64,000 nt of DNA, from NCBI GenBank assembly GCA_951406725.2, contig OX597815.1, positions 99,200,001 to 99,264,000 on the forward strand. Direction: 5' to 3'. Shown piece after piece: positions 7,728 to 64,000 of the stretch. The position numbers and the translations under genes are program-made. Source of the stretch: Octopus vulgaris. Taxonomy: Eukaryota. Position 1 is the first letter of the stretch; each line of letters starts with the position of its first letter. The notes below the pieces were generated by a model. It was not told where the DNA came from and searched no databases. It saw only the letters and a program-made list of their open reading frames with translations.

Positions 7728-8005
7728 CTTCTTTTCTCTCTCTGTAATACCAAAGCTGGGCTGGCGACCAATTTCATAGCAATGTCTGAAGATCCTCCCA
7801 GCGACACAGCGAGGAACACATGCACCAAGGTTGGTTTGGAGCTGTTTTGAGGCCGTGTTGGGAGCTGAGGACGGATGCTTTGTGGAACATATCTCCCAGC
7901 CATAATCTAGTTGATATTTTTGGATTTTTCTTTTAAATATTTTTTCTTCGGGATGGGGTATATGTTTTCTTTTCCTTCAGGCAAGCTGTCAAATTTAACC
8001 TGTAT
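7400..8005 (+). pseudogene. Decayed Tc1/mariner (maT/DD37D-like) transposase C-terminus, interrupted by (CT)n
   Basis: Reads GRPYIWQKNYNPCYISEKSKNWLSEDLYDF..RPNSFDVN/PIDYYVCNAVEQDTNRS..CNTKA, matching the QQDSAP...WPPNSPDLNPLDYYVW region. Confidence 0.65.
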
Positions 8006-8200
8006 ACACTATATATACATACAATATTTGATATGTACATATATACACAAGGGTACTACATGACTACCTATATCGCTAAAAAATAGAAGTCGAAAAACAC
8101 TTCTGTACCACTGAATAGTCGGAAATCTATTACAGACATGATAGGAAAAAATATCAGTGAACAATAATGTCTTACCTCTACTGGGTTAGAACAAGTAAAT

Positions 8201-8276
8201 GCTGGTCAACCTGGTACCGATTTCGAGATTTAGTGCCAAATAGGTGCCCGATTTCTCATCAGCCAAAGTCTGCCAG
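8201..8276 (-). ncRNA. Type I hammerhead-like motif within a ~310-bp insert (approx. 8045-8360) between TA-rich tracts
   Basis: Minus strand reads CTGGCAGACTTTGG-CTGATGA-GAAATC...AAATCTC-GAAA-TCGGTA-CCAGGTTGACCAG. Core intact, extended stem I, imperfect stem II. Confidence 0.65.
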
Positions 8277-8358
8277 TTAAATTACTACTAACATTCTCCC
8301 CCACCATGCCTGCAAAAGTTCGTTTGAAGTGATCAAGCACTGGTATTTAATACTATCA

Positions 8359-27707: not shown

Positions 27708-28248
27708 TAGAAAGAGAGAGATGGGGAGAACGATAGGTAGACAGACATGTATATGTATGTATGTATATAATCTAAAGATAAACATAAACATATAAGCATG
27801 TATATATGTAAGCATGTAAGCATGTATATATAATGCGCGAATGTAAGTACACTCGTATATGTACAGTTAGAGATATAGGCATATAGATATAGATACATAG
27901 ATACAGAGAGAAGGAGAAAGGGGATAGAGACAAAGAAACAAACAAACAAACAAACAAACAAACAAAGAGAAGAAAGAAGAGAATAAAAAGCACAATAATA
28001 GAACTGCTTACATTGACTTTCAAAACTAGTAGATTCAATCTCAGAGAGAGAGGAACACAAATAATGAAAACGAGAATCTCAGCAAAATTTCGAACGTTGG
28101 GTTACCTGCTGCCATTTAAGACAAATATATGCGCTTGAAATACACCAGAAGCTTGCTTTGCAACCACGCAGTTTCGTTTTCAATACCACAAAGGGTATAC
28201 TTTTGGCAAGTGTCTACTATTAGAACACCAGACCGACCAATATATATA

Positions 28249-28714
28249 TATTTATTACGATCGCTATTTTCCAGTAAATATCGGTACTTCGTTGTACCAT
28301 TTATTTACTTTTATATGTATAATTTTACCCTTACGGGCTATCTTTCGTATTGCATTACTATTTTCATTGAAACTTCTTCACTGTCCTCGTTCTGCTAACG
28401 TTTTGGCGTTCAGACGAGTGTATTGGCATAGATGTGGCAACATTTGAAATTTTGTTTAGGTATATGCAGCTGATGAGGACAAATCAAATCTACGTTGTCA
28501 AACGTATTTGGAGAGTCTGAAACCGGTCCTGCATTATCCGTTTCTAGGTTTTTCATTTTCCAGATGTTCTTCCTAGAGGTAAGACAAATTTTTCTGTTTG
28601 TTGCACACACACGTCTTTGCTAGTATATACGCAGTGAAGCTAAACAATAGCGTCGTATTTATTACGATCGCTATTTTCCAGTAAATATCGGTACTTCGTT
28701 GTACCATTTATTTA

Positions 28715-28717
<3 letters not shown>
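28249..28717 (+). mobile_element. Retrozyme-like element: 407-bp monomer with 62-bp terminal direct repeats, inside (TA)n (family H1)
   Basis: Identical 62-mers at 28249-28310 and 28656-28717, a central hammerhead, no meaningful ORF, TA runs on both sides. Confidence 0.75.
28464..28534 (+). ncRNA. Type I hammerhead ribozyme (predicted cleavage after C28528)
   Basis: ATGCAG-CTGATGA-GGAC(aaat CAAA tc TACGTT gtca AACGTA TTTG gaga)GTCT-GAAA-CCGGTC-CTGCAT. Perfect 6-bp stem I, intact core, palindromic ACCGGT stem III, GUC triplet. Confidence 0.88.
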
Positions 28718-28752
<35 letters not shown>

Positions 28753-28755
<3 letters not shown>

Positions 28756-30357
28756 TTGCGGCCAAAATGTTCAGAACGGCATTGTTTTCGCCAGAAAAGT
28801 AGGTATACGTTTTTATCAGTTGTTTTATATTCTATAATTTTCACAGACAATAAATACGATATTAATTGTTATTGTCTGAGATTTTGGTGTAATTTAACAA
28901 AAGTTATGGATGATTTAGTGATTTACTGCAAAACCCATGGCGGCCAAAATGATCAGAACGGTTGAAAAAATTACAAAATAATCAAAAATGACAGAGAATA
29001 CTGGAATTATTTAATATTTAGTGTGAAGCCCTTTAGCTTCAATCACACTTTGACATCTTCGACTGTATGAGGAAATTAAATTTTCAATTTCTTGCTAGGT
29101 GATCTTATTCCATTCTTCCTGAAGAGCATTCCATAATTGCTCGGTTGTTTTAGGATTTCTGGCTTTCGAACGTTCTCCTAGAATATTCCACACATTTTCA
29201 ATTGGATTGAGATCTGGGCTTTGAGCAGGCCAATCCATAATAATAACCTTTTCAGCCTTGAGGAAGTTCATGACCACCTTAGCCTTGTGACATGGAGCAT
29301 TGTCCTGCATGAATATGGGTGGTCGCTTAGTTGAATTTCTCAGCACAAGCAAGACATGATCTTTTACAAGTTGTTTATAAACTCCTGCATTTACCTTTCC
29401 ATGTAATCGCACCAAAGGGCACACACCATGTCCAGATATCATCCCCCAAACCATGACACTTCCTCTACCGAATTTAACACTAGTCTTAAGGCATTTAAGC
29501 AACAATTTTTCACCTACTTTTCAACGAACGTACCTTTTCCCATCTGAGCCAAATAACATAAACTTAGATTCTTCACTGAAATGCTCCGTTTGCCATTTTT
29601 CTTGAGACCACAACACCATGTTCGGTTGCAAAGGTAAGACGACACTTTTTATTTTTGGAGCTGATCAGTGGCTTCACTGCTGGTGATCTTGCTTGTAGGT
29701 TATGTTCAACTAAACGATGAGACAAGTTTTTCGAGATAACGTTTTCTTCAATACAATGCTCATTTCCCGAGAAACAGCAGCAGCAGTTTTAAATCTGTCC
29801 TTTTTAACCAACTTTACCATAGCACGATCTTCTCTCTTGGTCGTTGTTCTTGGCCTACCTGTAAACTTTCTTGCTACACACAAACCACAATCATCGAAGA
29901 CCTTAAGAATACCGTGAACAACACTTTTTGACTTGTTAACAATCTTTGCAATAGACCCAATACTTAAATTATCCTTCTTTCGAAGCTTAATAATCTGCTG
30001 ACGAATTGATAACGGAGTAAGTGGCATTATATTAACAAAGTACGCTGCAGATATTCTTACTAATGTTTAGTAAACGAACCGTCACGTAAACAAATTCAAA
30101 ACATTAGAGTTCGCCGGTTAAATATACTAAAACATGGACTAAAAGCAACCGTTCTGATAATTTTGGCCGCCATGGGTTTTGCAGTAAATCACTAAATCAT
30201 CCATAACTTTTGTTAAATTACACCAAAATCTCAGACAATAACAATTAATATCGTATTTATTGTCTGTGAAAATTATAGAATATAAAACAACTGATAAAAA
30301 CGTATACCTACTTTTCTGGCGAAAACAATGCCGTTCTGAACATTTTGGCCGCAACTG
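28753..30357 (-). mobile_element. Full-length Tc1-family transposon with ~212-bp IR/DR-type TIRs and TA flanks
   Basis: TIRs 28753-28964 and 30146-30357 are near-identical, with TA on both sides. Each TIR has an outer and an inner gcggccaaaat..tcagaacgg repeat. Confidence 0.95.
29011..30027 (-). pseudogene. Tc1 DD34E transposase disrupted by frameshifts and a stop
   Basis: HTH N-terminus with GRPR, FSEESKF, GSVMVWG, FMQDNAPCH, WPAQSPDLNPIENVW, ending KGLHTKY*. Premature stop at 29095-29097 and frameshifts around 29500-29710. Confidence 0.92.
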
Positions 30358-33872: not shown

Positions 33873-34320
33873 ATATTGTAAGCTTTTGGCTAAACTCATT
33901 AGTCATGGAGTTAATCTAGTGCATCGTGAGCCTTCCACCCTGCCAAAATTATACACGATTTTTTCTTTCTATTTCTGTAAGCTAGCCAGTGTATTTTCTG
34001 AGACACAAGAGAATTTGTAGCAAAGTTCATTCAGTCCAATTGCCGTCGGGTTATTCCACACCACATGCGGTATTTAAACCTTTTGAACTCCCTTCTGAAT
34101 TCTCTTGTGAAATAATTAATGCTAACGCAGAAGACCATCACCAGATCCCTTGCAGTTTCGATATGACCCATATTTATTGGACATACGCTTTTTAAATCTT
34201 TTATCAGCGCATTAGTAATAACAATGATGTCGGTTTCGTTGACGAAGTCAAAATTAGGCACAAATATTTCGAAAGTTGTAACCTGTATTCGTCGAAATAA
34301 AAAGAATGACACTCATTAAC

Positions 34321-39270
<4,950 letters not shown>

Positions 39271-39271
<1 letters not shown>

Positions 39272-41218
39272 TCAGTAGTTTTATTTTTATTTTTATAGCG
39301 TGCTTTCACTTCACTACCGAGCGCAGCTCTGTGTGCCTTGGGTATGTGCTGTGATTTGTTGTGATGCTCTGATGGTTATTGTATGGAAAGTGTTCTGCGT
39401 AGGATGTGGGCAGTGCCTAGTAGTGCAATTTTCTGTATGTTATATGTGTTTGTAAGTCCTGGTGTTTTTGTTATGTATTTGTCTGAATATTTTTTTATCA
39501 TGCCTAATGCACCTACTATGATAGGAATTGTTTCTGTTTTCAGATTCCACATTCTAGTTACCTCTATTTCCAGGTCTTTGTATTTTGAGAGTTTCTCCAT
39601 TTCTTTTAGAGACACGTTGTCATCTGCCGGTATTGATACATCAATTAAAAAGCATTTTTTTCTTCATGATCTCTGACAACTATATCTGGTCTGTTGGCCT
39701 TAATTTCTCTATCTGTGTGTATCGGCATATCCCAGAGTATGGTTGCTTTCTCGTTTTCTGTGACCTTTTCTGGTGTGTGCCTATACCATCTTTTTTCTGT
39801 TGTTATTCCATAATGTTGGCATAGCTTCCAATGTATGTAGGTTCCAACTCTGTCATGTCTGTGAATATATTCCTTCTTAGCCAGGACTGGGCAGCTAGAG
39901 ATAATATGATTTATTGTTTCTTGTCCATCTCCACATATTCTGCAGTTACTTGTAATATTTCTTTTCATTACATGTTTTTGGTAATTTCTGGTGGGGAGGC
40001 TTTGGTCTTGTGCTGCAATTAAAAATCCCTCTGTTTCTGCTTTGAGTCCTGAGCTTCTCAACCATTGCTGGGATTTTTCTTTGTCTATTTCTTTTGCGTT
40101 TAGTTTAGTGCAGTATTTACCATGAAGGGGCTTTTCTTGCCATCGTTTTATCATGGTTCGTTGCTGTTCTGTTTTTAGTTTGGATTTCATTTGTTTTATA
40201 GCTTTTGTTGTTTCTTCATCTTCTTCTTCTTCTTCATGTTTATTAGGTGGTATGATTTCTTGTTTGTATTTGTCAGCTTCCTTAAATACTGAGAACAGTT
40301 TTTTGTTTTGCTCGTGTTTTGCCGCTATCTGGATCAGTTTTCCTTCCTTCTGAAGTAGATATTTTTGCAGTCCTATGGTGGTTATTTTATAGTAGTTTTC
40401 CAGCTGTATAAGGCCTCTACCACCTTCCATACGTTGTATATATAGTCTTTCTATGTCAGATTTTGGGTGATGCATCCTAGATCCTGTCATTATTTTTCTT
40501 GTTTTCCTATCTATTTTGGTCAGTTCATTTCGTGTCCAGTTAAGGATATTGTAGCTGTAACTTATAACTGGGACAGCTAAAGTGTTGATACCTATTATCT
40601 TGTTTTTAGCATTGAGCTCTGTGTTTAGTATTGATCTAACTCGTCTATAATATTCTTTTTTTATTTTCTCTTTCATTTGTGTGTGTTGTGTCTTATCTAG
40701 TTCATGGATTCCTAAGTATTTGTAAGTTTGGCTTTGGTCTAATTCTTTTATTTCATTGGTTTTATCTAGTGTGATGTTGTTACTCTTAACTAGTTTTCCT
40801 CTTTTCATGGTTACTTTGGCGCATTTTTCTAATCCAAATTTCATATCTATTTCTTTGGTAAATCCATGAACTGTCTTTAATAGTGTTTCCAGCTGTTTGT
40901 CATTTGCAGCGTATAGTTTTAGGTCATCCATATATAAAAGGTGGCTGATCGTTTTGCCGTAACATTTATATCCGCATCCAGTTCTATTTAGCATATCAGA
41001 TAGAGGTGACAGTGCCAAGCAGAAAAGGAGTGGAGAGAGCGTGTCTCCCTGGAATATTCCTCTTCTAATGGGGATGTCTTTGGTTTTCATGAGTCCCTCT
41101 TTTGTTTGGAGGTGTAGGACTGTTTGCCATTTATTCATAGAGTGCTCTATGAATTTTATGATTGTTGGTGCTACTTTGTTAATGGCTAGTGTTTCGAGGA
41201 TCCATGTGTGGGGGATGC
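39271..41218 (-). mobile_element. 5'-truncated R4/Dong-like RLE non-LTR retrotransposon within (TAA)n
   Basis: RT motifs RGIFQGDTLSPLLF and HLLYMDDLKLY, zinc knuckle CRICGDGQETINHIISSC, RHD, RPDIVV...KLSKYKDL endonuclease, ~100-bp 3' UTR. TAA repeats on both sides. Confidence 0.93.
39376..41218 (-). pseudogene. RT-CCHC-RLE ORF fragment with one frameshift in a homopolymer (~39655-39661)
   Basis: ORFs 39645-41138 and 39376-39615 join as HEEKKCFLIDVSIPADDNVSLKEMEK if one base is added to the T run. Confidence 0.88.
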
Positions 41219-41232
41219 TATTATTATTATTA

Positions 41233-41308
<76 letters not shown>

Positions 41309-41316
41309 CATTATTA

Positions 41317-41807
41317 TAGGCGGGCTGGCAGAATTGTTAGCATGCCGGGTAAAATGCTATACGTCATCTCGTCCGTCTTTATGTTCTGAGTTCAAAATTC
41401 CACGGAGATCGTCTTTGCCTTTCATCCTTTCGGGGTCGATAAAACGAGTTACAGTTGAGCAGCCGGGGTCGATGTAATCGACTAACTGCCTCCTCTGAAA
41501 CAGATGACAATGTGCGAAAATTTGAAACCGTTATTATTATTATCATTATTATTATTATTACTACTACTACTACTACTACTATCTTAGCGAAGGTGGATTC
41601 CGGATTATTTTTCCTTTTTTTTTTTTACTTAATTCTTGAAAGCGGTCGGGTTCATTTTTAGTATTCTCCTTTGTGAGAGCAGTCGAATTTATTTCAGATA
41701 TTCTCATTTTAAAAGTCATCTCTGGTTAATCGTTGAAAGAACGTTGGTGTTGCCGTGGCGGATGTGTGCGCTCTCTGAGTGCCCTTGTTGTTGCTGTTGT
41801 TGTTGTT

Positions 41808-63024: not shown

Positions 63025-64000
63025 AGAGGCCGAGGAAGGGCGAATGGCACCGCGAGTGTCGCGTTGCTCTCAAGCAACTCTGCCGTCCTGGGTCGACCTT
63101 AAGTGACTTCAACACAACCAAAGCATTCTATAGGGGTTTAGTGGAGGGGAGGTACGACGACGAGCTCGGGGCGAACCTGGACGTCGACGAGGAGTACCTG
63201 ACCCGCCTGTTCAGGACGACTTTCGGGCCAGGGCCCATGGACAACTTCCAGAGATCCCTGGCCTGGCAGTGCTACCGAGAAGCGCTACCCGTTCGGGATA
63301 AGCTCTACAGACACGGCTCGAGAAACACGGGGCCGACCTGCCCGAGATGCGGTCAGAGCGACGAAACCGTTCTGCACGCACTCGTTCAGTGTCCAACAAT
63401 TTCCGACCTGTGGGCTTATGTCGAACAACTGCTGTCACGTGTGGGATGAGTCGGTTTATCAGCTGAGTCTATCGTCAATATTGTCACGCCTCCTTCCTTC
63501 AAACGGGAAGGAAGAGCTATTTTCATCATCCTTGTGGCTATGGCGAAAGAATGTATCTGGTGGACGCGTCTGAAAGGATTGGAGACAAACACTTTCCTCT
63601 CTGGTCAATCTCTCATCAACTTCTTCAAGTACCACTTGAAAAGGAAAGTGAGAGTAGAGAGGCAAGTTTTGTCTAGCGAATGTTTTAAAAAAAGATGGGT
63701 GAATGTAGCAAGAATGGCACGTATGAATGACGAAGCCACCTTGAGCATAGTCCTATGAACCCAGAAATCGAAAACAGAGAGTTGCTTATTTGCAAAAAAA
63801 AAAAAAAGAAATATAAAATGTGACATCATTGACCGAGGTTACCGTGGTCTTTTCCGTAGGCTTTTCTTTCCACGGGTAAACCTCACCTGTCCTCCCCTTT
63901 ACACTTCATATTGACATTTCTGTGATATCGATCCCTATTGATCAATTTTTTTTCCTCCCCCCTTTTTTTTTAAACCCCCTTTTTTTGTCCTCTTTCTCTC
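63025..64000 (+). mobile_element. 5'-truncated Tx1/L1-clade LINE 3' end (zf-RVT region plus 3' UTR) after a (TATC)n/(TGTC)n tract
   Basis: One frame 63027-63758 with a single internal TGA (63447-63449): RSLAWQCYREALPVRDKL...CPRCGQSDETVLHALVQC...AKECIWWTR...FKKRW. Confidence 0.85.

Follow-up and report, generated by a model that had tools for sequence, protein, structure and literature searches.

The window analysed here is a 64,000 nt stretch of Octopus vulgaris contig OX597815.1. It carries, at 28249..28717 on the + strand, an insertion made up of a 407-nt unit and 62 nt of the next unit, which we read as a 5'-truncated copy of a non-autonomous Penelope-like (PLE) or retrozyme element. The first-pass annotation described 62-bp direct repeats lying 407 bp apart, and these are perfect: the left copy is at 28249..28310 (+) and the right copy at 28656..28717 (+), 407 nt start to start. 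The left repeat begins at a 5' junction in TA-like unit sequence that adjoins a short TA tract. The right repeat ends at the main fixed 3' end of the family, the first of two putative reverse-transcription starts. Immediately upstream of the fixed 3' end there is a GGTAC-loop-GTACC hairpin (28283..28298, with a second copy at 28690-28705; +). Its pairing is preserved in the common variants and it is also found in sister family Y (described below); we regard it as a candidate recognition element. The segment that we call the tail (unit positions ~63-138; 28311..28367, +) lies between the two 3' ends used by the family, is internal in the window copy and bears a 19-nt deletion at about 28341/28342. 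TA tracts, to which no strand applies, are present on both sides as annotated: a short (AT)5 on the left (28240..28248), taken as a target remnant, and (TA)18 on the right (28717..28752), taken as the target microsatellite. The annotated lack of coding capacity also stands, there being no ORF of at least 120 aa that overlaps the insertion.

There is a type I hammerhead at 28464..28534 (+). Stem I is formed by ATGCAG (28464-28469) and CTGCAT (28529-28534), and the core consists of CTGATGA (CUGAUGA in RNA; 28470-28476) and GAAA (28519-28522), separated by an extended stem II (28477-28518). Stem III is 2 bp long and lies within the palindrome ACCGGT, with the predicted cut after C28528. The motif has the CUGANGA / GAAA / NUH core, the three stems and the open stem I of the type I class. 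It had been annotated as canonical; the stems, the core, the extended stem II and the palindrome are all there, but pair 10.1-11.1 is G-U in the window copy instead of the canonical G-C, is G-C in only one subfamily and is non-canonical in most. A hammerhead descriptor gives two matches in the window and none in 30/30 block-shuffled windows. The comparison with Rfam models that the first-pass annotation had proposed gives a divided result. Hammerhead_HH9 matches the window hammerhead with E=2e-4, but the score of 27 bits is below the gathering score of 52, and at the gathering threshold no Rfam model matches anywhere in the window. The window copy bears a single hammerhead and is therefore unable to cut out a monomer unaided.

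Downstream of the hammerhead there is a splice-donor-like AG/GTAAGA, with the exon/intron bar after AG (28577..28584, +), and this is found in the same place in sister family Y. Spliced copies were not found at any of the 189 loci with three exact junction patterns, and there is no splice joint in contigs from sequencing runs presumed to be RNA.

The window also holds other mobile sequences. A Tc1/mariner-type DNA transposon (28753-30357), with 212-nt inverted ends that are 99.5% identical and a DDE_3 frame at 29095-29520 (-), directly follows the right TA tract. About 4.5 kb of (ATT)n (~34300-38800) lies beside an RT frame of 563 aa (39645-41336, -) that has a zinc motif at its C-terminus; this resembles R4/Dong-type elements, which target TAA repeats. 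A zf-RVT domain fragment at 63027-63449 (+) is probably the end of another non-LTR retrotransposon.

The window locus is one copy of a dispersed family without ORFs, repeated on most of the large contigs of the genome (2.8 Gb searched, in 227 contigs), and the copy number rules out a single-copy locus. A search with the element gave 1860 first-look candidates, of which 40 were scored. Exact hammerhead cores of the GUC form number 160 in the genome as against 0 in the control, and a 19-nt anchor has 143 matches on one strand (the forward-strand count is inflated by a variable gap). We estimate that there are about 300 or more recognisable copies, and assembled a set of 189 unique loci. In 173 copies, divergence from the column majority has a median of 5.2%. 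The unit of the family is AT-rich (35% GC) and measures 429 nt, not the 407 nt that had been taken as the monomer. The window copy is 22 nt shorter (19 + 3), and its length is private to it because, when compared with a 429-nt copy, it has lost 19 nt in a deletion flanked by microhomology and 3 nt in a T-rich stretch.

The ends of the insertions were tabulated in a set of 140 copies, taken from the first 100 matches listed of each of two patterns that require part of the unit and are unranked by length. The 3' ends fall at two fixed sites about 70 nt apart: 105 are short (unit position 60-84), 19 include the tail (125-142) and 16 are elsewhere. The 5' ends are variable as a result of truncation and are spread over about 600 nt. 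In 57/140 copies the main segment is longer than one unit and passes into the previous unit without a seam. Head-to-tail runs in the 189 loci measure 840 nt at most and so stay short of two units; two full hammerhead cores, 427-429 nt apart, are present at 4/189 loci, and a two-site pattern for the GUC form only has 4 exact matches genome-wide. An inverted arm is attached to the 5' end in 31/140 copies, and the two ends of these loci are short and tail in 22, both short in one, both tail in none and include an unclassed end in 8. There is (TA)3 or more downstream of 130/189 loci, as a raw count from which no genome-wide background is subtracted, and one locus sited in non-TA DNA (L038) shows a target duplication. 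The first-pass annotation had envisaged circular permutations with free ends, and random permutation is ruled out by the fixed 3' ends. Its long tandem multimers are at odds with the 840-nt maximum, and the 1.15-mer of the window, which it explained by slightly more than one turn round a circle, is one draw from the broad spread of 5' truncation and no mark of exactly one turn.

The 5' truncation, partial tandems, inverted 5' copies and microsatellite target bias seen here are features of PLE insertion. Published PLE copies are 5'-truncated and form partial tandems, inverted 5' copies occur, and the tail is often on one end only (PMC8557442); this tail sits between two internal reverse-transcription starts (PMC11167929). 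Because the two fixed 3' ends and the one-sided tail of the octopus family match the anatomy given in PMC8557442 and PMC11167929, two internal priming sites about 70 nt apart are likely. Additionally, unit position ~160 (window ~28385-28395), at a hairpin 5' arm, is a second place where 5' ends gather, with 10 against 3.4 expected; this could possibly be a transcription start or a pause site.

In an alignment of 47 distinct hammerheads 93.6% of the cells are paired, compared with 24-41% in slid controls. Six pairs and 36 cells are altered on both sides; in stem I, CG to UA and AU to GC occur together in one subfamily, and in stem II, CG to UA occurs in 18 rows, these compensatory changes representing few inherited events that are non-independent. 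The cut triplet among 48 hammerheads is GUA in 28, GUC in 18, GUU in 1 and GUG in 1. The compensatory changes in the stems suggest that the hammerhead fold is conserved and that the ribozyme is under selection, and cleavage is predicted. The unit is highly self-paired, with a fold z=-6.5 against shuffles for the 407-nt unit and a z of about -5.5 to -6.8 overall. Counting against this, the antisense strand has almost as strong a fold (z -5 to -6.5) and the minimum-energy fold is without the active core. A 2-bp palindromic stem III is a form reported to need dimers (PMC4209133 and PMC6765202), eight of nine Xenopus retrozyme dimers were without cleavage in vitro (bioRxiv 10.64898/2026.07.22.740005) and cleavage is dispensable for PLE insertion in vitro according to PMC11167929.

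Copies whose start lies within 34 nt around the predicted cut were sought genome-wide with a pattern that gave 31 matches, from which 5 were dropped (internal deletions, mutated full copies and one duplicate locus). Of the 26 remaining 5' junctions, 7 are at +1 of the predicted cut and 17 are at +1..+8. The upstream control gave 23 matches, of which 3 were dropped, and the other 20 junctions are spread over 49 nt with a maximum of 3 per site, as judged by eye. Against this control the Poisson P=2e-4 for +1 and 1e-6 for +1..+8, both uncorrected for microhomology. In 6/7 junctions at +1 there is a TA directly upstream, which may come from the target or from the element's own GUA triplet. Because of these TAs and of the TA-rich positions +5 to +9, microhomology accounts for part of the pile-up. 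In the 140-copy set, 4 ends made in a second pass over the unit lie at the cut as against 0.37 expected; ends made in the first pass number 3 as against 2.0 by the unit-wide rate, which is not significant, and the hot spot at ~160 is equally strong. At L174, L249 and L017 the sequence after an internal deletion starts again at 0 to +2 of the cut, a weak hint from a noisy scan. There is no clear repeat of the pile-up in two sister families: 0/9 junctions are at +1 in family Y, and about 2/17 in family X, by eye and with a pattern spaced about 15 nt wider than intended. Taken together, the 5' ends at the cut are moderate evidence, confounded by TA microhomology, and hint that cut RNA serves as the template and that cleavage takes place in vivo.

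Duplicated parts within a locus resemble each other more than they resemble other copies. Tandem pairs (74) diverge by 4.4% and inverted pairs (54) by 3.8%, against a divergence from typical other copies of 9.8% and 8.8%; pairs from one locus are non-independent. The duplicated parts have some rare variants in common, and the three segments of locus L003 have 4-5. This suggests that one sequence variant was re-read, or two like molecules were used, per insertion. That more-than-unit copies could come from hammerhead-made circles is an idea already in print (PMC4209133 and PMC7229834), and the retrozymes of mussel, coral and axolotl form circles (PMC7229834). Contigs of four sequencing runs presumed to be RNA cover the unit, and are uninformative on strand, ends and circles. 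In contigs of two probable RNA runs, from different studies, the upstream flank of a diverged copy (L228; G000:C14, near 31.79 Mb) appears joined to the element, which suggests read-through transcription; this copy possibly lies inside a host transcript. With its more-than-unit copies, seamless joints and near-identical halves, the sequence is a multicopy, ORF-less mobile family with a hammerhead, of the retrozyme kind that the first-pass annotation suspected.

There are also related families in this genome. Other hammerheads that share this stem III were sought with a pattern, which has 409 matches against 58 in the control; among the first 100 matches listed, most belong to two families, X and Y, and the loci examined for them resemble partial tandems that have TA ends and no ORF. 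Family Y is colinear with the unit (score 104.5; shuffles 74.9 +/- 6.8, maximum 92 of 100), a second stretch of it scores no better than shuffles, and it keeps the donor-like motif and the terminal hairpin. The window itself contains a copy of family Y (8004-8324, -) between TA tracts, and this copy has a type I hammerhead of its own as well as the donor-like motif and the terminal hairpin. Family X (L259-L263 and L274) has a unit of about 430-460 nt, an ACCGGU stem III, partial tandems and inversions.

None of the 189 loci has a PLE ORF contiguous with the element, so the case of a Penelope LTR (pLTR) always attached to its ORF, which the first-pass annotation had named as its refutation, is absent. 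True PLE fragments are present in the flanks of 9/189, where they are reversed, downstream or have their own 3' end about 1 kb away; most tblastn matches of the flanks are to peptides translated from non-coding or repeat DNA. No upstream flank is common to copies at the same junction in the 189 loci. The 18 flank pairs that were listed join at different positions and are read as common repeats. A search for GIY-YIG loci gave 6136 first-look candidates, of which 150 were scored and 30 fetched, and when the unit was compared with these 30 there was no BLASTN match better than E=0.41 and the local-alignment z was <=2.4. A pattern with the same stems and a shorter stem II, aimed at an autonomous partner, has 2 matches, both of them deletion derivatives, and there is no such partner among 20 loci of other ACCGGU hammerheads.

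The genome has many GIY-YIG frames, among them intact, repeated ones of 781 codons, of which a 597-aa part has RT followed by GIY-YIG. We take this family to be putatively of the Neptune type, given a cysteine motif before the nuclease. Such a motif is described in PMC8557442. The 781-codon family too has (TA)n at its end and may carry a tail of about 36 nt, and it shares no significant sequence with the unit; the PLE partner of the unit is therefore deduced from insertion structure, not identified by sequence. In the 3' UTR of the 781-codon family (L067, L072, L083 and relatives), many copies of which have intact frames, there is a hammerhead-like motif with a UUGAUAA core. This core resembles a U3-A8 variant described in PMC4209133.

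In summary, the window locus is probably one 5'-truncated member of a dispersed family of 429-nt non-coding elements in which the hammerhead fold is conserved and which a PLE RT/GIY-YIG protein likely mobilises in trans. The unit would be transcribed, at least partly by read-through, and the hammerhead would likely cut, probably as a dimer through the palindromic stem III. After nicking (TA)n DNA, the PLE protein would prime at one of the two internal RNA sites about 70 nt apart and copy upstream across the unit joint, stopping at random or at the ribozyme-cut 5' end, and a second nick would allow the other site to prime the arm of opposite orientation. Where a copy exceeds one unit, a monomer would have been read repeatedly, either round a ligated circle or through template jumps from end to end; we put a covalent circle as the source of such copies at a little short of an even chance. 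We are more hesitant about a wider proposal, and would on balance bet against it, that the family and its two sisters are a group of cephalopod mini-elements living as ribozyme-cut RNA circles and copied by a Penelope-type enzyme, with the cycle recorded in the genome as 5' ends at the cut, two fixed priming sites and seamless re-reading. If true, the insertions themselves would give direct evidence for the mobilisation of animal retrozymes by Penelope-like machinery and for cleavage by their hammerheads in the germ line.

The two ways of re-reading a monomer can be set against each other. The classic retrozyme cycle, a sub-case of mobilisation by a PLE protein, has two-hammerhead loci that release a 429-nt monomer, which becomes an abundant covalent circle and the main insertion template. 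It would fit the many main segments (57/140) that exceed one unit although no locus reaches two, the homogeneous halves within loci across subfamilies, including the rare variants of L003, the loci with two full cores (4/189), the strong self-pairing and the circles of mussel, coral and axolotl retrozymes (PMC7229834). An intact circle has no 5' end, however, yet ends gather at the cut, second pass included, which means that linear or re-cleaved templates are needed; two-core loci are also rare. We think this cycle nearly as likely to be right as wrong. Linear templates only, that is cut monomers or read-through of 1.5-2-unit loci on which the RT jumps end-to-end to give seamless tandems, would make the circle unneeded. 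Ends lie at the cut on both passes, and the second-pass stops fit end-to-end jumping better than a circle; the internal deletions near the cut (a weak and noisy signal) and the contigs with the L228 flank, which suggest read-through, point the same way. We give this possibility serious weight, at somewhat under an even chance.

There are two further explanations. The copies might be solo pLTRs of an ordinary autonomous PLE, left by 5' truncation. All the insertion hallmarks are PLE-like and most PLE hammerheads are single motifs of truncated copies (PMC4209133), but upstream of the unit start the long copies run into their own unit and never into an ORF (57/140 longer than one unit; 0/189 joined to an ORF), so that this is very improbable. 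It is also rather unlikely, if less so, that the hammerhead is an inactive relic in a SINE-like passenger and that the pile-up at the cut comes from TA microhomology only. The TA-rich surroundings of the cut, the weak stem III and the non-canonical 10.1-11.1 pair of most subfamilies would agree with a relic, whereas the compensatory changes in stems I and II, a cut triplet that toggles between the permissive GUC and GUA, and the far fewer junctions at TA sites farther away would not.

The family can be compared with several known systems. Members of Hammerhead_HH9 are known as conserved single-copy amniote motifs. The octopus hammerhead shares with this model (RF02275) the type I core and a near-identical stem I / stem III context, at a score (27 bits) that is below the gathering score of 52. 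The non-LTR retrozymes of animals (PMC7229834; 350-390 bp in mussel) are, like our family, ORF-less, AT-rich and highly self-paired, with a type I hammerhead, head-to-tail repeats and autonomous PLEs alongside. Their reported units are of 170-400 nt and they form dimers to 62-mers (same source), whereas our unit, at 429 nt, is slightly longer, its dispersed copies are shorter than two units and its RNA circle is putative. A 2026 preprint already makes the case for animal retrozymes as non-autonomous PLE sequences (bioRxiv 10.64898/2026.07.22.740005). It proposes the same relationship for vertebrate retrozymes, with monomers dispersed over chromosomes, on the basis of co-occurrence and pLTR homology; ours is based on insertion anatomy, with no homologous parent found.

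PLEs with a pLTR, a tail and an inverted 5' copy (PMC8557442, PMC11167929 and PMC4209133) have in common with the family truncation, partial tandems, inverted arms, a one-ended tail, two internal starts, microsatellite targets and a palindromic short stem III. In contrast with these, the family is without an RT/GIY-YIG ORF, its tail is about 65-75 nt long instead of 30-40, and its stem II is long where theirs is minimal. The Chlamys non-autonomous elements such as MRC1 (Craig 2021, PMC8557442) are ORF-less PLE dependants with pLTRs and head-to-tail insertions, as in our family; they do not have canonical hammerheads, and for them an autonomous family with common 3' sequence generally exists, whereas no such partner was found here. 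The octopus element is a known kind of element: it behaves like a PLE insertion, looks like a non-LTR retrozyme and is not an autonomous PLE. Our literature search, to which repeat libraries and the supplement of PMC7229834 were out of reach, did not turn up a family from a cephalopod or a description of genomic 5' ends at the cut.

Two questions are stated to be open in PMC7229834, PMC11167929 and bioRxiv 10.64898/2026.07.22.740005: the identity of the enzyme that moves animal retrozymes, and whether PLE hammerheads cut during transposition. Both become testable because the family offers a minimal substrate of 429 nt on which candidate priming sites are mapped, together with a candidate recognition hairpin and natural compensatory variants, and because intact Penelope-type ORFs are present in the same genome. 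The family supplies, beside the systems compared above, insertion-level evidence that bears on the open mechanism of retrozymes.
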